From the IMG/VR virus record IMGVR_UViG_3300023105_000021: a DNA stretch of 64,000 nucleotides. The stretch is one strand, 5' to 3'. The stretch is from an uncultured virus (IMG/VR IMGVR_UViG_3300023105_000021) (lineage: Duplodnaviria; Heunggongvirae; Uroviricota; Caudoviricetes). A program made the position numbers and the translations under genes. Below are positions 3,141 through 63,062 of this stretch, one piece after another. The notes under the pieces were generated by a model. The model was not told the origin of the DNA and did no database searches. It saw only the letters and a list, made by a program, of their open reading frames with translations. Position 1 is the stretch's first letter; each line of letters opens with the position of its first letter.

Positions 3141-3581
3141 TTATCGCCTGCGGCCTCCTTGGTGAAACATATCGCCTTCGTTTATAATTCTAAAAATTAT
3201 TCCCTTTTGTTTACACCATGCTCTTGCTGATTCCCATTTTGCTTGATTAATAACATAATGAGCTTGGTTAGCTCTACTACGACCTAGTTTTTCTCTTACG
3301 GTTTGGTTTGATGGCTTAACTTCTATTAATTCGACTCGTTGTTTACCATTTTTGTCTGCATATACAATAAAAAAGTCTGGAACATAAATTGTATGTTTTC
3401 CTGTTAATGGATTTCTATATGGTATGCGTATCGCTTCCGAAGCCCATTGACTAACACTTGGATGTGCATCACAAAACTTCATAAATGTAAATTCCCAACT
3501 ACTTCTATAAGTTGGTGTTTTATTACCTACATATTTTTCAGGGTTTTGTGGTGTAAATTTTCCTTGTGCAAACTTAGCCAT
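3141..3581 (-). CDS. gp4: Head completion nuclease (T4 gp4-like, TnsA-type PD-(D/E)xK fold)
   Basis: QGKFTPQNPEKYVG, YRSSWE, WASE, YVPDF, IEVKP, NQAKW motifs typical of gp4. Confidence 0.85.
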   Translation of the reverse strand: MAKFAQGKFTPQNPEKYVGNKTPTYRSSWEFTFMKFCDAHPSVSQWASEAIRIPYRNPLTGKHTIYVPDFFIVYADKNGKQRVELIEVKPSNQTVREKLGRSRANQAHYVINQAKWESARAWCKQKGIIFRIINEGDMFHQGGRRR

Positions 3582-5580
3582 TTCTTCTCAACTGCAATCC
3601 ATTCTTAAACACAAAACTACCTCTTACACTAAGTGTTTTTTCTAGAGGAGTTGTGATTGGTATATTAGCATTGTATATAACCCTAGCAGGGCCACCATTC
3701 AAGCTATTTAGATCCGACCATGCTGTGTCTTCTGGACCGGTTGGATCACTACCTATATAGAAATTAGTTGACGATTGTGTTTGTACTTCGGATTGTATCC
3801 AACTACGTAAGTCTTCGTAAGTCCAATTTCTATTATATTGAATTACAGTTGATAAAAATCCTGCTGCTACTGGACATGCTGCTGATGTTCCACCGAATCG
3901 AGTATCTCTACAATCCTGTGTTCCTAAGTCAGTATAATTATCGTCTAGTCTTGCTGTATCTACACCGTATGTACCTACTGTAGCTGCTAGTGTGCCATCT
4001 GCTGGAGCATAAAAATCTATAGCATTACCCATATCACTGTAATTGACTTTTTGTTCTTTACTCGATGGTATTAGATCATCTAATGCGCCGATGTTTATAC
4101 CTGGAAACTTAACTGTAGTGTTTCCTTGAAAGGTAAGACTTTCTGTCTTACCTATATGTTGAGGGAATCCTCGTCTGTTAGTAGTTCCAGTTACTGCAAA
4201 CCCAAAACTAAACCAAGCATTGTCGTATACTCCTTCATTGGTATTGTCTCCGATATGATTGTCGTAATTAGGATGGTCTGGGTTTACTTGTTGCTGATTA
4301 CTATTGCCTGCGGCACAAACATATATAACACCTTCGTCAACTAATTCTTTAGCTGCTTGTGTCATTGAATTATCATACATTTCAGACTTCCAACGTCCGC
4401 CGTCGCCGGCTGATCCTAAATATCTTATAAATTCTGGTTCGGTAGTATATGCAACTGCTGGATCATTTCTCCAAAAATAATAACTAGCCGATTTATCAAC
4501 TCTAAATCCCCAACTATTAGAACTTATTGTAGGATCTTTTGTTCCATATTTAGGATTAATAGGTTTATACTTGTGAAATATTTTTTGTATATCAAATCCT
4601 ACATCCCAGTCTACTCTGCCGCCGCCGATATGATTAAGATGCCACTTGTTAGCATTATATGCCCAACCTTGAGTTCTACCATATGTTAAACCTGCACATT
4701 GGGTTCCATGAGTTCCAGATGCAGTAGTAGGATATGAATTATTGTTACCGTTATTACCTGTACGAGTATATAGGTTTTCTATTTGTATTGATCCAAATTC
4801 TGCAAACTGCGGAGAACGTTGATTTGTTTGTTCCCACCATGCTCGTGCTGCTGTTTCGGTTGGAACAATAGTGCCGTCCCAACGAGTTTCTAATCTAGTT
4901 GGATCAGCATCAAACCATTCTGGATCAATATAGTACGGAGAATCAAATACAATATCGAGTAAATCACAGTAGCCATTTCCAGGCAATACATTTCCGCCTT
5001 TATAATTTACAGGATTAACAGCATTTGTAACTCCTCTGTTAATAAATTCTACATGACCAAACCAACATCCGTTATCGCAAACAATAACATCAACATCTTC
5101 TCCTGCACCGTGTGTAGGTATAGCACTATCTATAATAGTGCTATCGTTATTACCATTTTGTAACCACGGACTGACTTTTTCTGTTAGTCTTAATAACTGA
5201 CTGGTATTTCTATTTAATGCGTTAGTATTAAAATTTCCATTACCGTACCATATTTGAGCGTTTTCGTATGCTTGTTCATAACGTTGATATATTGTTGGAT
5301 TTTCAAAAAGTAAGTCGTCTTCTGGAACATTATACAAATCTTTGTTATGTTTAAAATCTAAATTAATAAATTGTATTCTTGAATCGTTTTTTAATAATTC
5401 TGCTTCTTCATCAGTTAATAAAAATATTCCTCTAGTTGGACTATGTTCTACATGATCTGTACACTCAACTTCTCTTACCGGAATAGCTTCTATTGAAGAT
5501 CCAGGATTACACAATTCATTGTGTACTTCATTAAATTGCTCTGCTGTATGTGTTCCTATAGCATAATAGTTTTCTGACAT
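3574..5580 (-). CDS. Subtilisin-like serine protease (peptidase S8)
   Basis: Catalytic motifs DVIVCDNG (D), HGTQCAG (H), AAGN (oxyanion N) and GGTSAACP (S); N-terminal propeptide-like segment. Confidence 0.85.
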   Translation of the reverse strand: MSENYYAIGTHTAEQFNEVHNELCNPGSSIEAIPVREVECTDHVEHSPTRGIFLLTDEEAELLKNDSRIQFINLDFKHNKDLYNVPEDDLLFENPTIYQRYEQAYENAQIWYGNGNFNTNALNRNTSQLLRLTEKVSPWLQNGNNDSTIIDSAIPTHGAGEDVDVIVCDNGCWFGHVEFINRGVTNAVNPVNYKGGNVLPGNGYCDLLDIVFDSPYYIDPEWFDADPTRLETRWDGTIVPTETAARAWWEQTNQRSPQFAEFGSIQIENLYTRTGNNGNNNSYPTTASGTHGTQCAGLTYGRTQGWAYNANKWHLNHIGGGRVDWDVGFDIQKIFHKYKPINPKYGTKDPTISSNSWGFRVDKSASYYFWRNDPAVAYTTEPEFIRYLGSAGDGGRWKSEMYDNSMTQAAKELVDEGVIYVCAAGNSNQQQVNPDHPNYDNHIGDNTNEGVYDNAWFSFGFAVTGTTNRRGFPQHIGKTESLTFQGNTTVKFPGINIGALDDLIPSSKEQKVNYSDMGNAIDFYAPADGTLAATVGTYGVDTARLDDNYTDLGTQDCRDTRFGGTSAACPVAAGFLSTVIQYNRNWTYEDLRSWIQSEVQTQSSTNFYIGSDPTGPEDTAWSDLNSLNGGPARVIYNANIPITTPLEKTLSVRGSFVFKNGLQLRRNG

Positions 5581-16063: not shown

Positions 16064-17487
16064 TGCAACATTTTTATGATGGACAAATACGTAGATATCT
16101 TACACAAATAGTTAGATTGTTTGGACAATTTAGTTATAAAGACGGTAAGGGTAGACTAGTACAAGTTCCAGTTACATACGGCGACTTAACAAGACAAGTA
16201 GGAAGTATCCTTAGAGATAATTCTGAAAATAAAATTCCTAGCGCACCAAGAATGGCTGTGTATATAACCGGACTAGAAATGGATACTTCACGTCTAGCAG
16301 ATAGCAGTTATGTTAATAAGCTAAACATTAGAGAACGTGCATATGATGTAGACGGCCAAGAATATTTAAATAAAGCAGGTAAAAATTATACAGTAGAACG
16401 TATAATGCCAACCCCTTATACTCTTACTGTAAACGTAGACATATGGACTACTAATACGGATCAAAAATTACAAATACTTGAACAAATTTTTATGTTGTTT
16501 AATCCTAGTTTAGAAATACAAACAACAGACAATTATATCGATTGGACTAGTTTAAGTGTTTTAAATATAGATAACATAAACTTTAGTAGTAGAAGTATAC
16601 CAACTGGTACTGAAAGTGAAATTGATGTTGCTTCGATTAGTTTAACAACACCTATCTTTATTAGTCCTCCTGCAAAAGTTAAAAAATTAGGAGTTATTAG
16701 TAAAATAATTACAGCAGTATTTGCAGATCACGGATTAGAAGTTAATATAGACGAAACTGCTTACACACAAAGTTTAGTTGAACAAAAAATTAAAGAGAAC
16801 GAAGAAACAGACAAAGTTAATAGTCAACCAGATGAAGCATTGACTAATGAAAGTGCATTAGTAGTAACTACATATCAAGATTATGGATTAGAAGTGTTTG
16901 ATGGTGTTGCAAGATTATTAAAGAATGGTGTTAATCGAAACGATACATGGACTGCTTGGAACATTGCGCAACCATTTACATTTGAACCTGGAATTACACA
17001 ATTACGATTACAACGTGCAAACGGTTTAGAAATAGTATTTACTATTGATAGTATTGATACTACAGACGAAACACGACTTATACTAAATGCTCCTGATGCA
17101 GAAACATTACCAGCAGATTCTGTTATACCAGGTCCTGCTGGTGACAAAACATATGTTGATTATATTATAGATCCACTAAGATTTGATCCAATGCAATCGC
17201 AATCAAATAATAGACTTTTATTATTAGGTAGTATAGGTGATCCTAATAATACTAATGGCGCTCTGGCATGGAAGAATTCAGATAACTCAGATTTTGTAGC
17301 AAGTGAAAATGATATTGTAGAATGGGACGGTTCACGCTGGCACATTGTTTTTGATGCTAGTGAAGAAACTAACGAAGCATTTGTAACTAATCTAAACACA
17401 CAAACACAATACAAATGGACAGGCGAGTATTGGATACTCTCTTATGAAGGAGAATATCCAAATGGCTCTTGGAGGTTTACATACTAA
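16063..17487 (+). CDS. gp15: Tail completion / sheath terminator (gp15-like) with C-terminal extension
   Basis: HFYDGQIRRY, VPVTYG, PRMAV, MPTPYTL, QILEQI...FNP motifs. Confidence 0.75.
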   Translation: MQHFYDGQIRRYLTQIVRLFGQFSYKDGKGRLVQVPVTYGDLTRQVGSILRDNSENKIPSAPRMAVYITGLEMDTSRLADSSYVNKLNIRERAYDVDGQEYLNKAGKNYTVERIMPTPYTLTVNVDIWTTNTDQKLQILEQIFMLFNPSLEIQTTDNYIDWTSLSVLNIDNINFSSRSIPTGTESEIDVASISLTTPIFISPPAKVKKLGVISKIITAVFADHGLEVNIDETAYTQSLVEQKIKENEETDKVNSQPDEALTNESALVVTTYQDYGLEVFDGVARLLKNGVNRNDTWTAWNIAQPFTFEPGITQLRLQRANGLEIVFTIDSIDTTDETRLILNAPDAETLPADSVIPGPAGDKTYVDYIIDPLRFDPMQSQSNNRLLLLGSIGDPNNTNGALAWKNSDNSDFVASENDIVEWDGSRWHIVFDASEETNEAFVTNLNTQTQYKWTGEYWILSYEGEYPNGSWRFTY

Positions 17488-17500
17488 GATAATTATTAGT

Positions 17501-17932
17501 ATGAAAGACATTATTTGTAGTGGTGCATTAATTTATTCTCTAAAGTCTAAAATGTTTCTATTTCTGCATAGAGCAAACGGAAGCCGTAATAATGTTTGGG
17601 GCTTAGTTGGTGGAACTAACGAAGGTTTAGAAACACCCTGGGAAGGTTTGCGCAGAGAAATTGAAGAAGAAATAGGCTCTATAAATATAAAGAAAACTAT
17701 TCCTTTAGAAACATTTGTATCTAACGATTCTAAGTTCCAGTTCCATACATATCTTTGCGTTATCGAAGATATTTTTATTCCTAAACTTAATAACGAGCAT
17801 GACGGATTTGCTTGGGTAGAATTTAGTAAATGGCCGAAACCTTTACACTCAGGTTTGCAAAGCACTCTCAATAGAAAAAGTAATATTACTAAATTAAAAA
17901 CAGTAATCGAAGTAATAGATTTACTTGACTAA
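17501..17932 (+). CDS. NUDIX hydrolase
   Basis: Nudix box GGTNEGLETPWEGLRREIEEEIG; likely start MKDIIC at 17501. Confidence 0.85.
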   Translation: MKDIICSGALIYSLKSKMFLFLHRANGSRNNVWGLVGGTNEGLETPWEGLRREIEEEIGSINIKKTIPLETFVSNDSKFQFHTYLCVIEDIFIPKLNNEHDGFAWVEFSKWPKPLHSGLQSTLNRKSNITKLKTVIEVIDLLD

Positions 17933-17953
17933 TAATCATAAAGGTAGTATAAT
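17925..17953 (+). promoter_or_regulatory. sigma70 promoter of the heptose operon
   Basis: TTGACT-17 nt-TATAAT, ending 5 nt before ATG 17959. Confidence 0.85.
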
Positions 17954-17958
17954 AAATT

Positions 17959-19101
17959 ATGTCTAAAGTATTAGTTATTGGTGATTTAATAAATGATAGG
18001 TATATTTTTGGTTCTTCGACTAGGTTAAGTCCTGAAGCACCTGTACCTATTGTAAGTCAGGATCGTATAGAAGAATTTCTTGGTGGCGCAGGACTTGTTT
18101 ATAACAACTTAAAAAGTTTAGGCGTCGATGCAACTTTATTAGAATACGACGATCCAAAAAGTGAAAAAACTCGTGTAATCTGTGATGGCCATTATGTTAC
18201 AAGAATAGACGACGATCGTTATGCTAACGGATTAGATATTTACAATGATATTAAAAAATTAGATTTATCTAATTTTGAATATGTTATTCTTAGCGATTAC
18301 AATAAAGGTGTATTAGAATATTCAAAAGATATTATTGCACATCTTAATAGTTTTGATTGTAAAGTTATTGTAGATCCTAAACGCCACGTTAGTTGTTATG
18401 ACGGGGCTTGGTTAGTAAAACCTAATTACAAAGAATACAAAGAATTAGGGTTTGAAAAATGGGACGGTAATATAATTGTCACTAATTCTAGTAAAACTAC
18501 TACTGCTGAATTTGATTTAAAACGTTATGTTTCGCAACCTGAACCTTTAGAAGTTAATGATGTAACCGGAGCCGGAGATTGTTTTCTTGCTGCATTTGTT
18601 TATGCGCTAACTAAAGGGTATGATTATCAAAAAGCATTAGATTTAGCAAATAGAGGATCAACTGAAAGTGTAAAACACGTAGGTACATATATTCTTACTG
18701 AAAAAGACTTGAATAAACGTATTGTTTTTACTAACGGATGTTTTGATGTATTGCACAAAGGTCATCTTACATTACTAAAAGAAGCTCGCAGTTTAGGTGA
18801 TAAACTTGTAGTAGGACTGAATAGTGACGGTAGTGTAAAACGCTTAAAGGGAGACAACAGACCGTTTAACGATCTTGAAACAAGACGAGAACAATTAGAA
18901 CTTATTCCGTATGTAGACGAAGTTATTGTATTTCATGAAGATACGCCATATGAGCTTATTAAAGAACTAAAGCCAGACTTAATTGTTAAAGGTGGAGACT
19001 ATACTGTAGAAGAAATTGTAGGACATGATTTAGCACCTGTGCATATTGTACCTACAGTACAAGGTTACAGTACAACAAAAATTTTAGAGGCGTCTGTATG
19101 A
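17959..19101 (+). CDS. hldE: Bifunctional heptose-7-phosphate kinase / heptose-1-phosphate adenylyltransferase
   Basis: VLVIGD, RLSPEAPVP, SDYNKG, VDPK, DVTGAGD (PfkB kinase) fused to FTNGCFDVLHKGH, GLNSD.SVKRLKG..RP, KGGDY, YSTT. Confidence 0.92.
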   Translation: MSKVLVIGDLINDRYIFGSSTRLSPEAPVPIVSQDRIEEFLGGAGLVYNNLKSLGVDATLLEYDDPKSEKTRVICDGHYVTRIDDDRYANGLDIYNDIKKLDLSNFEYVILSDYNKGVLEYSKDIIAHLNSFDCKVIVDPKRHVSCYDGAWLVKPNYKEYKELGFEKWDGNIIVTNSSKTTTAEFDLKRYVSQPEPLEVNDVTGAGDCFLAAFVYALTKGYDYQKALDLANRGSTESVKHVGTYILTEKDLNKRIVFTNGCFDVLHKGHLTLLKEARSLGDKLVVGLNSDGSVKRLKGDNRPFNDLETRREQLELIPYVDEVIVFHEDTPYELIKELKPDLIVKGGDYTVEEIVGHDLAPVHIVPTVQGYSTTKILEASV

Positions 19102-19916
19102 AAATTTTAATTACTGGACACAAAGGATTTATTGGACAAAATCTAACTCTTAGATTACAAGACGAACACGAGCTATCAGGATATGAATGGCAAGCTGATT
19201 ATTTGCCTGAAGTTGAAGGCTATGATTGGGTTATTCATTTAGGTGCTATTTCAAGCACAGCTGAACGTAATGTTGATAAGATCATGTTACAAAATTATGA
19301 ATTTTCAAAATGGTTGTTTAATCAATGTAATCTAAAAGGTGTAAATTTTCAATATGCATCTAGTGCAAGTGTATATGGACCATACGAAAAGTTTAAAGAA
19401 GAAGATCCAAAACAACCACAAAGTCCGTATGCTTGGAGCAAGTATCTTTTTGATAGATGGGTTACTGGACTCTCAAAAAGAAACATTATAGTTCAAGGAT
19501 TTAGATATTTTAATGTATACGGTCCTTTAGAAGACCACAAAGGACATCAAGCAAGTCCTATAACTAAATTTACTAATCAAGCAAAAGAAACTGGTACTAT
19601 TTCTTTATTTGAAAACAGCGACAAATACAAAAGAGATTTTATTTTTGTAGGCGATGTATGTGAAGCACATAAAAAATTATTATCTAGTGATGTTTCCGAC
19701 ATTTATAATATAGGAACAGGAACTACTACAAGTTTTCAACAAATAGCAGACATTATTGCTAAAAAATATGATGCAAAAATTAAATATGTACCGATGCCGG
19801 ATCATTTAGCAAATCAATATCAAGAGTACACATGTGCAGACAATTCAAAATTAAGTAATATTGTAAAAATTAATTTTACAACAGTAGAGGAATATATAAA
19901 TGGATCAGCCAACTAG
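19098..19916 (+). CDS. hldD: ADP-L-glycero-D-manno-heptose 6-epimerase
   Basis: TGHKGFIG, HLGAISST, YASSASVYG, YAWSK, FRYFNVYGP.E.HKG, YQEYTCAD. Confidence 0.88.
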   Translation: MKILITGHKGFIGQNLTLRLQDEHELSGYEWQADYLPEVEGYDWVIHLGAISSTAERNVDKIMLQNYEFSKWLFNQCNLKGVNFQYASSASVYGPYEKFKEEDPKQPQSPYAWSKYLFDRWVTGLSKRNIIVQGFRYFNVYGPLEDHKGHQASPITKFTNQAKETGTISLFENSDKYKRDFIFVGDVCEAHKKLLSSDVSDIYNIGTGTTTSFQQIADIIAKKYDAKIKYVPMPDHLANQYQEYTCADNSKLSNIVKINFTTVEEYINGSAN

Positions 19917-20286
19917 AAAGTCAGGTGTAGATCAAAAAGGTTGGGGCTACGAAATGATTTGGGCCACAAATGATTTATACTGCGGAAAAATTATGGTGTT
20001 TACTAGAGCTGGAGCAAAAACTAGTATGCACTTTCATAAAGAAAAAGACGAAACTTGGTTTGTAAACAACGGCAAATTTAAGGTTGCATACATTGATACA
20101 AAAAATTCAAAACTACATGAAAAAGAACTTAATGAAGGCGAAGTTTGGAGGAATCCTCCATTACAGCCACATCAATTAATTTGTCTTTCGAAAGAAGGAA
20201 GTGTTACAGAAGTTAGCACTCCAGATAGTGTTGAAGACAACTATAGAATTATTCCCGGCGACAGTCAAGTATTAAGCGAAGAATAA
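19900..20286 (+). CDS. Cupin-fold protein (sugar isomerase-like)
   Basis: KGWGYE, SMHFHKEKDETW, PLQPHQL, EVSTPD..EDNYR. Confidence 0.75.
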   Translation: MDQPTRKSGVDQKGWGYEMIWATNDLYCGKIMVFTRAGAKTSMHFHKEKDETWFVNNGKFKVAYIDTKNSKLHEKELNEGEVWRNPPLQPHQLICLSKEGSVTEVSTPDSVEDNYRIIPGDSQVLSEE

Positions 20287-20287
20287 A

Positions 20288-20986
20288 ATGTATAGCATAA
20301 ACTGGAGCAATAAAAAATCAGACAACACTGTATCCGATAAAAAAGAATCTGCGATTCGATACAGTACAGATAAAACAGAAGAAGAATATAATATTCCATT
20401 CTACGATACTGTGAATAATATTGCACCAAAAGTTGTTGTAGGTTTAGATAGAGACGGTGTTATTAATGTTGATCGTGGAGACTATACCTACAAGGTAGAC
20501 GACTTTGAACCGATCGAAGGTAGTTTAAAAGCAATAGCTAAAATTCGTAGACTAGGTCATAAAATTGTTATTATAACAAATCAAGGCGGTATAAGTAAAG
20601 GCATTTATACTCAAAACGATGTTGACACTGTACATAATCATATGTTTAATTTATTAGGTGAAGCAGGCTGTGCAAGTATAGATGCTCTTTATTATAGCGA
20701 AACTAGTGCTAGATGGGACCAGTATGCAAAACCTAATACCGGTATGTTTAAAAGATGTGAAAAAGAATTTCCTTTTATTAAATTTTCAAAAGGATTTTAT
20801 GTAGGCGATAAAATATCAGATCTAAAAGCTGCTTTTAAAATGGGAGCAAAGCCTGTACTAGTAAAAACAGGCTACGGAAATGAAACGTTAAAAGAACTTA
20901 ACAAGTTTTCTAATCAAAAAATTAAAAAGAAAACTATTGTTTTTGATAATTTATCTAGCTTTGCTGATTGGTTATCTCGTCGATAG
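20288..20986 (+). CDS. gmhB: Heptose-1,7-bisphosphate phosphatase (HAD family)
   Basis: LDRDGVIN, ITNQGGI, KPNTGM, VGDKISDL, LVKTGYG. Confidence 0.85.
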   Translation: MYSINWSNKKSDNTVSDKKESAIRYSTDKTEEEYNIPFYDTVNNIAPKVVVGLDRDGVINVDRGDYTYKVDDFEPIEGSLKAIAKIRRLGHKIVIITNQGGISKGIYTQNDVDTVHNHMFNLLGEAGCASIDALYYSETSARWDQYAKPNTGMFKRCEKEFPFIKFSKGFYVGDKISDLKAAFKMGAKPVLVKTGYGNETLKELNKFSNQKIKKKTIVFDNLSSFADWLSRR

Positions 20987-51500: not shown

Positions 51501-53314
51501 ACTTCTGCACCAAATTCACGTAAGTCAAAACTGTCAATTGTTGTTGCTGTTGCTGTGCCGTCTGTAATGCTTTGTGGTGTTAAATCAAATCCGTCTAGTT
51601 CTAAATAATTGCTGATGTATAAGTCATTGCCGTCTACTTCATCAATTGTACCTATTAGCACAGTTGATGCGTCAGTTGAAGTAACTGTAAGCGTATTACC
51701 TTGTGTAAATGTACCTGTAACGCCGCTTAGTGTGAGTTTAGTTCTACCTGCTAGTCTACGTCCGTCTTTGCTATCGTAAGCGTACATAGAACGATTAGCA
51801 AAGTATGTGAAGCTGTTTAGCCACTCAACTCTAGCACCGTTAGTCATTGTAATTGCATCAACGCCTGGTGTAATAAATGTTGCTGAGTGGAATAGCATTG
51901 CAGTGTTTACGCTAGTTGCGCTACCATAAGCACCATCAACATAAGCGCCTTTACCTGCATCGCCTGCATTAAATCCTCTAGGATCTTCAACAGTTGTAGT
52001 GCTACCGTTTGTAATTACAGTAATGTTTCTAATGTAAGGAGAACGACTTGATGCTTCGTAATCTGTTGCATAACGGAAGCCGTATCCGTTGTCTGGGAAC
52101 GTTCTAGTGTCATTGTTGCAGCTAAATGTTAATCCGCTTAAGAAAACATCATTACCGATATTTGCTGTGCCACCTGCGTGTGTAATTTGTAGTACACCAG
52201 TTGTTTCATTGTAAGTTGCACCGGTTATGTTATAGTTAGCACCAAGTATTTCAATAGTTCCGCCACTAACATAAGTATGAGCAAAAGGAGCAGTACCAAC
52301 ATTAACAGTTGTAGTTCCTGCTGATGCACCTGTAACTTCAAAGTAGTTGCCTCCGCTATAAAAACCAGTTAGTGTTAAGTCTTCAACAGTAGTTTCGCCG
52401 TTAAGTAAAATAGCGTCATTGTAACGTGTTTCTGTAGTTGGGCGAATAGATACACTACGAATACCTTCGCCTTTTAGTGTAACACCTTGTGGAACTGTTA
52501 AAGGAAATTCTTCTGTGTAATCACCTGGTGAAACAATAATAGTATCACCTGTAACAGCTACGCTTAGTGCATGTTTGATGCTTGCAAATGGAGCAAATAA
52601 ATGATCACCTTGAGAAGCGTCATTACCATTTTCTGCAACATAATATACATTTCCGTGTACTAGGTTAAAATCAATATTACTAATATTAAGTTGATTAGAA
52701 CTAACACTAGTAGCAATTAAGTTTCTTGTCCAAACGTCATTCCATTGCTTATTAACATTTCCTAATGAATATGTATTATTCTGATCTGGAATGATGTCTG
52801 ATGCAACTTCTGCATTAAAAATAACATTGTCTGTATCTGCATCACCAATTGTAATATTACCGTCTGCTGTAATATTACCTGTCGCATGTATGTTACCGTC
52901 TACATTTAAATCACTATGTATTTGAACAATACCTGTTCCGTTTGGACGAATTTCTAAATCAGCATTTGAACTATTTGTTGTAATAGCATTGCCTTCAATA
53001 TCAATACTATCAATGCGAATCTTGTTTAGTGAAACAACAGTATCTAGTGTTGCTAAGTTTAAATAAGGTTGTGTAGTACTAATAGTGTTACCTTCAATAG
53101 TAACGTCAGCTAGGTCAGCTCTATTAGTAACAATTAAGTCTGTGGTTTTAGTGGTTCCGTTAACATCTAACTCGTACTGAGGTGCAGTTGTCTTAACGCC
53201 GATACGCTGATTATTAACATCTAGATATAGTAAGTCTGTCTCAAAGGCTAGATCGATCCCATTACGGATCAAGTTAGACTTTAAGAGCGGACCTGATATG
53301 CGACCAACAGCCAT
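48581..53314 (-). CDS. 1577-aa repeat-rich tail fibre/appendage protein
   Basis: GRISGPLLK N-terminus; about 9 SN(A/S)DLELRANGTG repeats; YYVAENGND beta-helix cap; G.TLERP...GQVRYNTD C-terminal motifs. Confidence 0.8.
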   Translation of the reverse strand: MAVGRISGPLLKSNLIRNGIDLAFETDLLYLDVNNQRIGVKTTAPQYELDVNGTTKTTDLIVTNRADLADVTIEGNTISTTQPYLNLATLDTVVSLNKIRIDSIDIEGNAITTNSSNADLEIRPNGTGIVQIHSDLNVDGNIHATGNITADGNITIGDADTDNVIFNAEVASDIIPDQNNTYSLGNVNKQWNDVWTRNLIATSVSSNQLNISNIDFNLVHGNVYYVAENGNDASQGDHLFAPFASIKHALSVAVTGDTIIVSPGDYTEEFPLTVPQGVTLKGEGIRSVSIRPTTETRYNDAILLNGETTVEDLTLTGFYSGGNYFEVTGASAGTTTVNVGTAPFAHTYVSGGTIEILGANYNITGATYNETTGVLQITHAGGTANIGNDVFLSGLTFSCNNDTRTFPDNGYGFRYATDYEASSRSPYIRNITVITNGSTTTVEDPRGFNAGDAGKGAYVDGAYGSATSVNTAMLFHSATFITPGVDAITMTNGARVEWLNSFTYFANRSMYAYDSKDGRRLAGRTKLTLSGVTGTFTQGNTLTVTSTDASTVLIGTIDEVDGNDLYISNYLELDGFDLTPQSITDGTATATTIDSFDLREFGAEVRLIASASVYGNFGLVGQGPGVIMYAIGHNLAYIGNGKEVTNDTETVIQANEVVESQGAKIRYNSVDHKGDFRVGDLFYVNQETGSVTFAVSDFEINTDNGVTFVTGSDTTFVDGTKIETGDWRISGNTVETLTQDANFAAGSGEINLNADVNVTGSLDVTGDVTIGGNITIGDEATDTIQIIAGIDSDIIPKTASTYSLGTVTKTWKNLYINEINVDDIQIRENYIETRLSNSDLELRANGTGEVVVPSNNVQIDNNLTVSGTTTLSDTSVTGTLTLVGDLNQTGNTTVDGNLTVTQDVDITGAAQFEEILIDDNYITTTSSNADLELRASGTGKIFVPNNDVEITNDLTVSNDITANNLTLVGQITADSFASDNILIQDNYIETTQSNSDLDLRANGTGRVFIPNNDILANEDFTVKGTTSLQSVSIVGDVTQTGNTTQTGNINLTGNLGITGNITISDAAQFENIQIDDNFITTTISTSDLELRATQFGEILIPNNDLVISNDLIVEGTITVGDINSAGTITANRFSTGDILIDDNFITTTQTNSNLELRANGTGEVVVPSNNVVIENDLTVNGNTNLKTTNIVGNVTHTGNTTQTGNINLTGNLDVTGEVIISASVIQFEDIQVTGNKITTTESNSNLELRANGTGNVYIPENDLLIENNLSVGNTVSVQNINVSNSIQSNSFSTGDILIDDNFITTTLSNSNLELRANGTGSIIIDDFDVNGSTITTTNDLNLTPGSGNIIINGTGALKLPAGTTLERPAEVTGQVRYNTDLSRFEGYNGTNWINLKGVEDLDGDTKVTAELTEGANDGVIRFDVQGSTIVTVNDSGLNAPKVIVDDVEIDGNVITTSTVDTDLRLSANGAGRVRFDNFAFESSTITNTVSDSVTLFENTGNGYVKFDGTYGVVIPVGASVDRPPAGFVEVGQMRFNTDDSRVEIFDGSNWVSVAGSGAGITRGDAEEIALATVLVLG
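49355..50810. repeat. Dispersed near-identical DNA repeats encoding LELRANGTG
   Basis: caactacttcgccagttccgttagcacgtaattctaa at about 49820 and 50761; gttccgtttgcacgtagttctaaattactattactt at about 49359 and 49557. Confidence 0.75.
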
Positions 53315-53457
53315 CTCTTCTCCTCAATACGGGGATCCTGTCCCTCTAGCCTAAATTTTCAGCTTGCGCTCTTTGCTGGCTAACCACAGTTTGACCCTGC
53401 AAGTATGGTCGTACTTTGCATTAATAGTATTTATCGTATTGAGAAAATAAGTGCTTA

Positions 53458-60895: not shown

Positions 60896-61285
60896 TTAGA
60901 TTGCAGTTAATACTAGTACGTTTGCTGTTGAATCGTCAGTAACAGTCCATGTATAACGATTGTTATTAAAATCAAACATTGTACGGTTGTGTACTTTACG
61001 AATGTTTACAGCACTTTCTCCGGCTACAAAACCTTGTAGAACCATTTCGTTAGCTGCTAGTGATCCAATTGCTTTGTCAACTAGTGTACATACACCTGTG
61101 TTACCTGATGTTCCATCTGGATCATCGTGACAGTTAAATTTTGTTTCTGAGCGTTGTGATAAAATTACACCGTTGCCAACTGCTGCGTTAGCACCAATTT
61201 TACACATTACTGTTAGGTTATTACCTTCAGTACCTGCTGAACCTTCAGTAGCACCAAAGTATCTTTTGTTTAATGGGCGTCCCAT
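60896..61285 (-). CDS. Hypothetical protein near capsid gene (possible head protein)
   Basis: 129 aa, MGRPLNKRYFG start, AAGGAG RBS, own TAAATA promoter and terminator. Confidence 0.7.
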   Translation of the reverse strand: MGRPLNKRYFGATEGSAGTEGNNLTVMCKIGANAAVGNGVILSQRSETKFNCHDDPDGTSGNTGVCTLVDKAIGSLAANEMVLQGFVAGESAVNIRKVHNRTMFDFNNNRYTWTVTDDSTANVLVLTAI

Positions 61286-61391
61286 AATTATCTCCTTTGT
61301 TTAATCATTGCCGTTCTAGGGTCTACGCGGTGAGTTTCCGCATAAGTCCTCAATAGAGGCTCCTATATGACAATAGTATTTATCCAAAGAG

Positions 61392-61418
61392 AAAAAAGCC
61401 CGCACAGTGGCGGGCTCT
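61392..61418 (-). terminator. Rho-independent terminator after the candidate ncRNA
   Basis: Minus strand AGAGCCCGC-CACTGT-GCGGGCTTTTTT; no CDS lies immediately upstream. Confidence 0.85.
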
Positions 61419-61422
61419 AAGA

Positions 61423-61639
61423 ATAAGCAAAATAGGTAGGACTCGGTTACACCTACAAGCCGCGGACCAAATACCATTTCATCTCCGCAACAACCTGCTT
61501 CCGCTCGGTAGAGCGATGTGACACTGCCTGTTTCCAGTACAACGCCTGGGTACCACCCCTAAGCAGTCAAGTTCGACGCTCTGGTAAACGCCTCTTCCTT
61601 GCACTATAAACATTGACTAGCTAAGTCTTTGTTGCTTAT
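61423..61639 (-). ncRNA. Candidate structured non-coding RNA (~217 nt)
   Basis: GC-rich island with paired ends (AUAAGCAA/UUGCUUAU), at least 6 internal stems, upstream sigma70-like promoter and downstream terminator. Confidence 0.7.
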
Positions 61640-61645
61640 GTTATT

Positions 61646-61673
61646 AATATAACATCTTTATAGTAAAAGTCAA
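61646..61673 (-). promoter_or_regulatory. sigma70-like promoter for the candidate ncRNA
   Basis: TTGACT-16 nt-TATATT with a TG extended -10. Confidence 0.65.
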
Positions 61674-61755: not shown

Positions 61756-61827
61756 ATGTGGACAAAACCTAGCTATACTGAAATGCGTTTTGGCTTTGAA
61801 GTTACAATGTATGTAATGAACAAGTAA
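61756..61827 (+). CDS. pqqA: Pyrroloquinoline quinone precursor peptide PqqA
   Basis: Manual translation MWTKPSYTEMRFGFEVTMYVMNK*; W.KP leader and E-x-x-x-Y core (EVTMY); AAGGAG RBS at 61744-61749. Confidence 0.92.
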   Translation: MWTKPSYTEMRFGFEVTMYVMNK

Positions 61828-61837
61828 AAATGTAGTC

Positions 61838-61865
61838 AAAAAAATAGGCCCCGTAGGGCCTATTT
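61838..61865. terminator. Terminator between convergent gp23 and pqqA, probably bidirectional
   Basis: aaaaaaataggccc-cgta-gggcctattt. Confidence 0.8.
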
Positions 61866-61886: not shown

Positions 61887-63062
61887 TTAGCTAAATGTTA
61901 CGCCTGCGGCGATATCAACTTTACCTAAGTAGTCAGCTGCGTTACCTAGTGATGACGCAGTGTTTGTAAGCTCAACATAACCATAACGTGTCATAAATGA
62001 TACTGTTGGTTCGAATGTTGATGGATCTAGTACAACACCTGAGCTCATTAGTGGGATATATGGGCAGTAGAACGCTGCTGCGTCTGACTCGCTTGATCCT
62101 TTATAACCAATAAGAACTGGTGCAGTATCTGATGCATATGTGTTAACATATACTTTCATTGCGTTGTTCAATGTACCAACCATTTTTGTGTTAGTTGGTG
62201 CTTCGAATGTACCTTCTGTTGTACGAGCGAACGCTGAAGTAGTTGCTGACTGTAGGATTGTTAGCGCGAATGGGCTAACAACTGCCCAGTTACCAGCACC
62301 ACGTCTTGTACGCTGTGCAATCAAGTTTGATACTCTGTTGATTTGAACTGCTAGTGCAGCATGTTCGTCACCAACAAAAGTAGCTGTACCTGAAACGGCT
62401 GTTTGATCATAAGTTTCAGTAGCAGCGCCTGCTAGTGAACTTAGTGAGCCTAGTACTTCTTGGTCGATTTCAGCAGTAATCTCTTGAGCAAGTGCTGCCA
62501 TGATTTCTGCTTCAACGTCAATACCGTGCTGTGATTGAGCATCTTGTGCCGCTTCGAATGTCCAGCGAGCTGATAGCTTTCTGGTTTTCGCTTCGACAGT
62601 TTGTTTCAAGATTTGGATTGACATTCTGTTACCAGCCTGTCCTTCAAGTGCTGCTGTTGCCGCTGCGCGGTCAGTTGCTGCATCACCTGAATATCCTTCT
62701 GCAATCTTGAACGGTGATAGTGCTTCTTCACCAGCAGTAGCTGAAGTGCCACCTGTGCTAGTAAAGTCGTCGCTATAACGTACTCTTAGTGTGTGGATTT
62801 GACCCACTGGACCTGTCATTGGCTGAACACCAACCAACTCGTTTGCAATAACGGTTGGCATAACACGTCTGATAACTGGTAGGATAACTCTGTTTAGAGT
62901 TGCTACATTACCGGCAGAAGTTGCACCAGCTGTTGCTGATTCTGAAAGATACTTACGAGTATTTTCTAGAGTCGCTTCCATAACAGCTTTCTTGTTGCCT
63001 TTTAGGCCTTCAACAAGTGCAGTCTTAGTGTCCTGCCAGCGACTTTCTAATAGTTCTGACAT
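61887..63062 (-). CDS. gp23: Major capsid protein (gp23-like)
   Basis: LPVIRRVMP..IANELVGVQPMTGPVGQI, VEAKTRKLSARWT.E.AQD, EIDQE, FYCPYIPL, FMTRYG. Confidence 0.97.
   Translation of the reverse strand: MSELLESRWQDTKTALVEGLKGNKKAVMEATLENTRKYLSESATAGATSAGNVATLNRVILPVIRRVMPTVIANELVGVQPMTGPVGQIHTLRVRYSDDFTSTGGTSATAGEEALSPFKIAEGYSGDAATDRAAATAALEGQAGNRMSIQILKQTVEAKTRKLSARWTFEAAQDAQSQHGIDVEAEIMAALAQEITAEIDQEVLGSLSSLAGAATETYDQTAVSGTATFVGDEHAALAVQINRVSNLIAQRTRRGAGNWAVVSPFALTILQSATTSAFARTTEGTFEAPTNTKMVGTLNNAMKVYVNTYASDTAPVLIGYKGSSESDAAAFYCPYIPLMSSGVVLDPSTFEPTVSFMTRYGYVELTNTASSLGNAADYLGKVDIAAGVTFS

Follow-up and report, generated by a model that had tools for sequence, protein, structure and literature searches.

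Layout of the locus

The DNA analysed here is a stretch of 64,000 nucleotides (the window) from an uncultured marine jumbo phage related to T4. Its capsid gene DNA is about 69% identical to that of cultured phages of about 350 kb, and the window also codes for a tail sheath and a gp15-like protein. The nearest related record used for comparison (G001) is 98.5 kb long, with an estimated completeness of 28%. Along the minus strand, the order is capsid gene, hairpin, pqqA (on the opposite strand), promoter, RNA, terminator, late motif, leader and a gene for a protein of 129 aa. The features are as follows:

61887..63062, minus strand: major capsid protein gene, Gp23 family (PF07068, E=2.9e-99)
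61842-61865, minus strand: terminator-like hairpin after the capsid gene (terminator search)
61756..61827, plus strand: pqqA-like ORF of 23 codons, divergent from the manA promoter (PF08042 PqqA, 46 bits; cut-off 21.1)
61646..61673, minus strand: sigma-70-type promoter, TTGACT-16-TATATT with a TG extended −10 (10/12 consensus matches)
61422..61639, minus strand: manA-class RNA, from the predicted start at about 61639 to the final base before the terminator (RF01745 match at 61426-61626; match to our own model R1 at 61422-61632)
61389..61418, minus strand: intrinsic terminator, a hairpin at 61418-61395 (9 pairs, 6 of them G-C) followed by a T run
61376..61384, minus strand: late-promoter-like motif GATAAATAC for the 129-aa gene (invariant in 10/10 aligned relatives)
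61283..61360, minus strand: freshwater-2 RNA (RF02980), a structured leader in which the 129-aa gene has its ribosome-binding site and ATG (model positions 1-84 of 84; 45.3 bits, E=1.2e-5)
60896..61285, minus strand: 129-aa gene, always 3′ of the capsid gene (ORF, predicted late gene)

An earlier note on this DNA, made from the sequence alone, had described the RNA region as a structured non-coding RNA with its own promoter and terminator, lying divergently from pqqA. The minus-strand promoter and the strong terminator are both present as it described them, the divergent pqqA is real, and the description of a structured minus-strand RNA with its own promoter and terminator was borne out by comparison across relatives. 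The segment is also more GC-rich than its flanks, as had been claimed (0.535 at 61400-61599 vs 0.275–0.41, the GC-rich stretch being about 215 nt long), and a search with ARAGORN found no tRNA or tmRNA, in agreement with the note. Its statement that there is no ORF does not hold to the letter, since two mechanical ORFs, of 44 and 53 aa, extend into the region.

Relatives of the 129-aa gene were collected from viral contigs, giving 59 loci that represent 41 distinct upstream regions, the window's own included. The capsid gene lies upstream of the 129-aa gene in 57 of the 59 loci, and the remaining two end at the contig edge. Among these loci, the spacer between the two genes ranges from 142 to 1726 nt and its cargo varies, consisting of pqqA (in either orientation), a glutamine riboswitch or manA.

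Family identity and fold of the RNA

The Rfam model of the manA motif (RF01745) matched the window with 49.8 bits (E=1e-11) over its full length (model positions 1-192 of 192). This score is 5.4 bits below the curated cut-off of 55.2 bits. A scan of the whole window at the Rfam gathering thresholds returned 0 matches, and manA appears only with E-value thresholds; divergent manA copies escape the default thresholds. In the nearest record, the manA match had an E-value of 3.4e-13. RF01745 was searched in 50 of the 59 loci, leaving out L002-L004, L006, L007, L013, L014, L017 and L023, which were duplicates or were covered in later scans. It matched in 16 of the 50 records, 10 of them above the cut-off (55.4–85.4 bits), and all 16 copies lie 142–163 nt ahead of the 129-aa gene. 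A covariance model of our own was then built from ten of these copies. It found manA in 14 of the 41 distinct loci, including L038, which the Rfam model had missed, and the window scored 200.5 bits with model R1. The flagged RNA is thus almost certainly a divergent member of the manA family. The earlier note had implied a novel RNA, had asked for a comparison with Rfam, and had foreseen that a known family would remove the novelty and leave the feature. This is what was found: with a full-length RF01745 match in the window and syntenic copies above the cut-off in relatives, the RNA does not represent a new family.

The manA type was found to be uncoupled from the flanking genes. At locus L050 the 129-aa gene is only 39% identical to that of the window and its manA scores 197 bits, while at L005 the gene is 92% identical to the window's and yet the manA is of a different subtype.

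The elements of the fold, all on the minus strand, are as follows:

61431..61608: P2, the junction-closing stem around P3 to P9, 61608-61604 with 61435-61431 (90.7% paired; both-side changes at 3/5 pairs)
61495..61566: P4 three-way domain with P5, P6 and P7 (helices 5-8 of the 73-sequence covariation test)
61556-61551: loop L5 on P5
61534-61531: GAAA tetraloop on P6, closed by CUG/CAG (consensus loop 'gaaa')
61510-61507: loop L7 on P7
61436..61490: P8 and P9 region
61490-61484 with 61466-61460: P8, loop region 61480-61473 (helix 9, 81.5% paired)
61456-61452 with 61440-61436: P9, with the 11-nt loop L9 (helix 11, 100% paired)
61423..61430: 3′ strand of the terminal stem, partner 61632-61639 (8 bp; lineage-specific; outside the Rfam model)

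All helices of the nine-helix manA architecture (5′ hairpin, closing stem, P3, P4 with P5-P7, P8 and P9) can form in the window, and the GNRA tetraloop typical of the family is present on the sixth helix. The internal stems named in the earlier note are all there, with one correction: its GGGU/ACCC stem consumes a loop that is open in relatives, and the family stem is GGG/CCC. The pairing that it proposed between the two ends of the RNA is in the sequence and in the minimum-energy fold. This terminal stem, by which the note had set the ends of the RNA, is a lineage-specific addition: of 10 lineages compared, only the window (8 bp), L017 (6 bp) and Pelagibacter phage Mosig (5 bp, with compensating letter changes) have it, and the remaining 7 lack it.

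The minimum-energy fold of the minus strand has −84.3 kcal/mol (z=−2.06), with 5 of 200 shuffles equally good; the plus strand gave z=−1.79. Folding energy alone is modestly better than chance. It is only mildly unusual; the case for the structure rests on comparison with relatives.

For this comparison, viral contigs were scanned with a pattern for the conserved junction motif, giving at least 119 stretches, and flanks were taken for 80. The covariance model matched 76 of these 80, which with the window and Mosig make 78 rows, 73 of them distinct. In the alignment of the 73 distinct sequences, which was fitted to the model and so is tilted towards structure, 81.4% of cells pair compared with 61.0% in shuffles, and both-side changes occur at 50 of 60 pairs (883 cells vs 328 in shuffles). 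The covariation score was 0.476 vs 0.160 for shuffled sequences, a value reached by 0 of 500 shuffles, and was 0.06–0.14 with slid partners. Support was poor for the 5′ hairpin (61% paired) and for the inner part of P8 (40% paired). This alignment superseded a first one of 13 sequences, in which 71.8% of cells pair and one subtype is out of register. RNAalifold on a plain MAFFT alignment gave 23 pairs only, with the variable helices misaligned, and was replaced by transfer of the structure from the window row and realignment with the covariance model. The comparison shows that the predicted manA fold in this lineage and its relatives is supported by covariation, the property that the earlier note had proposed to look for among homologues.

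The same comparison bears on whether the region codes for a small protein, either from the 44-aa ORF (61479-61613) or from the 53-aa ORF (61316-61477). Both ORFs exist mechanically, and sense-strand stop-free stretches of 28–65 aa are found in all 12 relatives. However, the variation tracks base-pairing and not codons, and the length differences between lineages are not multiples of three. On reading the sequence, no ribosome-binding motif was seen ahead of the ATG at 61613, a start that, in an alignment judged by eye, appears to be missing in other lineages, and the 53-aa ORF crosses both the terminator and the late-promoter motif. A coding function for the region is hardly credible.

Transcription of the RNA and its neighbours

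The extended promoter pattern has a single match within the 64-kb window. All 12 aligned relatives have both of its hexamers unchanged, while the RNA diverges greatly. At the other end, the hairpin and T run of the terminator are kept in 12 relatives by means of five different stem sequences. When full transcripts were folded, the mean pair probability of this hairpin was 0.95 for the window and no lower than 0.94 for 11 of the 12 sequences, the twelfth (L017) having a weak T run and a misplaced cut. The start at about 61639 is predicted from the position of the −10 site, and the end at about 61392 is likewise a prediction. We consider with good confidence that manA in the window forms a transcription unit of its own, served by a promoter of the host type.

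The same arrangement was sought across the wider subfamily. A promoter ending 3–20 nt before the RNA was found in 53 of 72 distinct copies, 42 of them with the TG, compared with 7 of 3637 control windows. A terminator starting at most 25 nt after the RNA was found in 33 of 68 copies (control 135 of 3637), and 29 of 67 have both. This layout, with a promoter in most copies and a terminator in about half, backs the reading of manA as an RNA particle independently of the in vitro cryo-EM work considered below. The other half or so of the subfamily lacks a terminator and runs into an ORF. Among the 31 terminator-less copies for which a downstream ORF was called, that ORF was scanned for 22: these were gp32 (7), Hsp20 (2), rubrerythrin (1), redoxin (1), a 5′-3′ exonuclease (1), one marginal match (1) and nine that were unrecognised. 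Because the downstream genes are so diverse, an early-promoter module fits better than a sensor of a single metabolite. The manA family can evidently also serve as an mRNA leader.

A cultured phage provides an example. A blastn search of cultured phages with a consensus-like copy (L011) returned only Pelagibacter phage Mosig EXVC030M, and no cyanophage copies were found by this route. The Mosig copy (MT647606.1, 108164-108371), which is unannotated in the record, is 77% identical over 225 nt and scores 64 bits against RF01745. Within this phage, which is T4-like and has a genome of 141 kb, it lies among the replication genes. It resembles the window copy in its promoter type, the TG extended −10 included, and in the terminal stem, which is kept by compensating changes. 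Unlike the window copy, it has no terminator, and a rubrerythrin ORF begins 18 nt after the RNA.

A rival view, the long-standing riboswitch idea, is that manA is a cis-acting leader or attenuator: transcripts from the sigma-70 promoter would normally end at the terminator, and a ligand or factor bound to the manA fold would permit read-through and hence early expression of the 129-aa gene. Such a role would agree with the available text of PMC2864571 (Weinberg et al. 2010), where manA is proposed as a riboswitch candidate in 5′ UTRs, with the half of the subfamily that stands without a terminator ahead of an ORF, and with Mosig, where nothing lies between promoter, manA and the rubrerythrin ORF. 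In the window the arrangement is different. Rfam types the motif as 'Cis-reg', and the position that this implies, the 5′ UTR of the next gene, is not found here; that position is a trait of the context and not of the RNA. A riboswitch platform would have aptamer and terminator sharing sequence in two mutually exclusive folds, and equilibrium folding gave no such pair. The terminator lies outside the manA fold, and its high pair probability in 11 of the 12 full transcripts means that no competing fold is apparent. Since the terminator sequences vary while the 3′ part of manA is conserved, there is also no conserved anti-terminator. The unrelated genes found after terminator-less copies are likewise ill-suited to the sensing of one metabolite.

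The 129-aa gene itself supplies further evidence. Its protein matches no Pfam or PHROG family. The motif GATAAATAC ahead of it resembles the T4 late promoter, TATAAATA. The core of this motif, ATAAATA, occurs 13 times on the minus strand of the window vs 3 times on the plus strand, mostly about 30 nt ahead of start codons, and the exact nonamer occurs 4 times vs 1.1 expected, all on the minus strand. At −71 to −105 of the 129-aa gene, ATAAATA is present in 33 of the 41 distinct loci, and in 19 of the 27 loci that lack manA. The motif is followed by the freshwater-2 RNA, a full-length match that takes in the ribosome-binding site and start codon, and that is a neighbour of the flagged RNA and not part of it. 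The window score is below the cut-off (45.3 vs 49.9 bits), relatives are above it in 7 of 9 scanned (50.6–76.6 bits), and compensating changes are visible among the aligned relatives. The freshwater-2 core was found in 31 of the 41 distinct loci, and in 17 of the 27 without manA. No relevant paper on freshwater-2 was found in the literature, and the motif is known here from its Rfam entry line. Another leader in the window, of 120 nt (53314-53434), had no Rfam match and gave z=−0.41.

Because the late motif and the leader are mostly kept where manA is absent, the 129-aa gene would be served by a putative late promoter and a leader of its own, regardless of manA. Moreover, both stand between the terminator and the gene, which argues that manA is not the leader of this gene. 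The attenuator role is accordingly judged unlikely for the window.

Contigs from RNA libraries were also considered. The region is contained in six metatranscriptome runs, four of which were examined by contigs. Such contigs reveal no transcript start, end or strand, and DNA may be present; with this reservation, the manA core was covered by contigs from 3 of the 4 libraries. One contig of 156 nt lies wholly inside the core, with 2 differences. Another, of 621 nt, links the 129-aa gene to the 3′ half of manA and so crosses the terminator, a join that would be expected of an attenuator, and a contig from a relative reaches 43 nt upstream of the predicted start. These bridging and upstream contigs could reflect read-through or DNA. 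Run X11 had no contig on manA, and positions 61339-61415 were almost uncovered in three runs, a contig gap that is no proof of absence. The library contigs weakly indicate that manA is expressed.

The divergent pqqA suggests a further arrangement, in which the manA unit is an antisense or divergent-promoter partner of pqqA and the two interfere with each other. A plus-strand site, TTGACT-18-TATGTT (9/12), is located at 61613-61642 inside the 5′ region of manA, and pqqA starts at 61756. This site is a weak consensus match, however, and pqqA is absent from most manA-bearing relatives; where pqqA is present in related loci, it is on the opposite strand relative to the window arrangement. The arrangement is therefore specific to the window genome and cannot explain a conserved RNA, and we regard mutual interference with pqqA as very improbable.

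Loop–loop pairings and the role of the RNA

The loops L5 and L7 are complementary in the window, where four pairs are possible, one of them at the expense of the P7 stem. Among 12 relatives, 48 of 48 L5-L7 cells pair. In the 73 distinct sequences, 88.5% of cells pair, with both-side changes in 27 cells vs 6.2 in shuffles, and the central pair is GC in 39, AU in 14, UA in 10 and GU in 3. The columns of L8 and L9 could not be aligned, so duplex energies were compared instead. Cognate L8-L9 loops gave −3.77 vs −2.21 kcal/mol for non-cognate loops, and among 49 loop types 0 of 5000 permutations were as good, a figure that is no true probability because the lineages are related. The L8-L9 complementarity of the window itself is short, at 3–4 pairs (4 consecutive bases; −3.6 kcal/mol for the extracted loops), and fits less well than in many relatives.

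The L5/L7 pairing was marked 'pseudoknot?' in a figure legend of PMC2864571 in 2010. A recent cryo-EM preprint (10.64898/2026.07.01.735769), in the text available, describes manA RNAs that form 10- to 60-mers, including decamers and a 60-mer cage. These are pentamer-based assemblies in which the molecules are connected by two sets of kissing loops, L5-L7′ and L8-L9′; one variant also uses a GNRA contact. The cages were formed in vitro by other manA members, at about 3 mg/mL RNA and 10 mM MgCl2. We mapped the loop numbers of the preprint onto the window by counting Rfam helices, and the identity of L6 with the GNRA loop agrees with this mapping. Covariation is blind to whether a pairing is intra- or intermolecular. 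By analogy with the published members, it is quite possible, if short of likely, that the window RNA self-associates in vivo as they do in vitro.

Taken together, these observations are consistent with the following scheme. The manA gene would form a cassette complete in itself, placed in the variable spacer that follows the major capsid gene. Host sigma-70 RNA polymerase would start at about 61639 and stop at the intrinsic terminator at about 61392, producing an RNA of about 250 nt outside any mRNA. As covariation shows, this RNA folds into the nine-helix manA core, to which the extra terminal stem adds a closure, and it exposes the loops L5/L7 and L8/L9, whose complementarity is likewise shown by covariation, as well as the GAAA tetraloop. 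By analogy with the cryo-EM structures of other manA RNAs, the loops would link several such molecules into closed oligomers built on pentamers. In this form the RNA may act in trans as a free particle, and not as a switch on the neighbouring gene. The window RNA is probably early-transcribed, free-standing and self-associating rather than a riboswitch. With all parts combined (a manA RNA, its own transcription unit, and a self-associating free particle in place of a riboswitch), we hold this scheme with moderate confidence. The wider proposition, that manA RNAs in general are not riboswitches but products of early phage RNA genes, assembling during infection into particles made of RNA only, is offered more tentatively.

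A different explanation is that manA is the passenger of a mobile promoter–terminator cassette that spreads through variable regions by recombination, the RNA being mainly a stable, insulating filler or 5′ stabiliser with no function in trans. Cassettes of this kind, with a promoter and a stem-loop, are described for T4-type phages as PeSL elements in the available text of PMC2839356 and PMC4122927. Their layout is similar to that seen here, with an early promoter and a stem-loop terminator on either side of a small unit that is mobile and occupies a variable stretch flanked by conserved genes. The likeness is one of layout, and PeSL cassettes, as far as those texts go, flank protein-coding cargo, whereas the cargo in the window is a conserved structured RNA. 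Mobility would account for the patchy presence of manA (14 of 41 loci), the changing cargo of a spacer of very different lengths, and the uncoupling of manA type from the flanking genes. It would also account for the window and L011 having the same terminator with different manA types, and for those copies in which the terminator is followed directly by another TTGAC. A filler, however, would not preserve about 60 base pairs and two loop–loop pairings by compensation across 73 distinct sequences. We think it unlikely that the RNA is only a passenger. Mobility and function are not exclusive, and the passenger explanation overlaps with the free-particle scheme preferred above.

The RNA family was already known; what the locus adds is its genomic context, namely a discrete unit with a host-type promoter, often its own terminator, and conserved cage loop pairs. 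Since 2010 manA has counted as an orphan riboswitch candidate, and in 2026 its RNAs were reported to form cages in vitro, without biological context. The locus and its relatives supply such a context from sequence alone, and make the alternative between free particle and mRNA leader directly testable. manA was found at unrelated positions and in different phage types, including jumbo phages, a pelagiphage, and ahead of gp32, hsp20, rubrerythrin and other genes. In the jumbo lineage the unit immediately follows the capsid gene as an exchangeable cassette, alongside further small RNA cargo. In the text available, both PMC9964418 and the CaCoFold preprint still present manA as a 5′ UTR element. 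Apart from methods papers, the literature found on manA as a free-standing RNA consisted of the 2010 paper, the 2026 preprint and the S-CREM1 paper, and the available portions yielded no description of a terminator-bounded unit.

Compared with the manA motif as given in the available text of PMC2864571 and in RF01745, the window RNA has the same nine helices and junction letters, the GNRA loop on the sixth helix, the L5/L7 and L8/L9 complementarity, and the habitat in marine phages. It differs in having an A-U-rich junction-closing stem where the consensus has G-C, and an extra terminal stem that joins the RNA ends. It also lies outside a 5′ UTR, with a terminator and a separate promoter standing before the next gene. 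It is carried by a jumbo phage whose capsid is of the Gp23 type, and not by a cyanophage or Photobacterium as for the manA motif. Compared with the RNAs described in the available text of the cryo-EM preprint, the window RNA is outside the studied set, so that its oligomerisation is proposed by likeness, and its L8-L9 pairing is weaker than in many relatives. It belongs nevertheless to the same family, the GNRA loop is present, and the loops that make the L5-L7′ and L8-L9′ contacts in those assemblies are complementary in the window and show covariation across its relatives.

Variable spacer cargo 3' of the capsid gene

In the viral loci that carry relatives of the 129-aa gene (L002–L060), the spacer that separates this gene from the capsid gene was measured. 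Its length ranged from 142 to 1726 nt and its small cargo varied from locus to locus; the spacer immediately 3' of the capsid gene is a recombination hot spot. Four of these loci carry a glutamine riboswitch aptamer (RF01739), in each case 3' of the capsid gene and 5' of the manA promoter, with scores of 46.9–51.3 bits (cut-off 35):

L017, 1918–1965: glutamine riboswitch aptamer
L008, 1953–1999: glutamine riboswitch aptamer
L050, 1956–2003: glutamine riboswitch aptamer
L053, 1956–2003: glutamine riboswitch aptamer

The Rfam scan did not find this riboswitch at the corresponding site of the window. Two plus-strand features were recorded nearby in the window:

61756–61827, plus strand: pqqA-like ORF of 23 codons with a ribosome-binding site (Pfam PqqA, 46 bits versus a cut-off of 21.1)
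61613–61642, plus strand: promoter-like site (9/12), contained in the manA unit towards its 5' end and directed at pqqA

Peptides near-identical to the pqqA-like product are encoded in five related loci (L003, L011, L016, L017 and L028), always on the strand of the capsid gene, indicating that the pqqA unit is inverted in the window. No pqqB–E-like domains were found in a domain scan of 36 of the window's 40 ORFs.

manA copies before gp32, and other gene blocks

In at least seven viral contigs from the junction-motif pattern scan (L071, L072, L094, L101, L103, L113 and L118), a manA copy lies 60–97 nt 5' of the gene for gp32, the single-strand DNA-binding protein, with no terminator between the two in these contigs.

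Elsewhere in the window, a plus-strand block (17444–20983) encoding NUDIX, a PfkB/cytidylyltransferase fusion, an epimerase, a cupin and a HAD phosphatase looks like sugar-nucleotide synthesis, and on the minus strand (3144–5580) a TnsA-like endonuclease adjoins a subtilase.

The freshwater-2 leader and the late-promoter motif

Throughout this jumbo-phage group the 129-aa gene lies 3' of the capsid gene. This conserved late gene has a structured leader at the same site in the window and its relatives:

within 61283–61384, minus strand: freshwater-2 motif, leader of the 129-aa gene

The orphan freshwater-2 motif is thereby tied to a phage lineage and a gene.

The window holds 13 copies of ATAAATA on its minus strand and 3 on its plus strand, mostly 27–33 nt 5' of start codons. 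This motif is probably the late promoter of the phage. Only one other late-motif site has a long leader:

53314–53434, minus strand: leader of 120 nt

This second leader had no Rfam match and folded no better than its shuffles. The freshwater-2 leader, in the window and in relatives, begins right 3' of a late-promoter-like motif, which resembles the T4 late promoter consensus.
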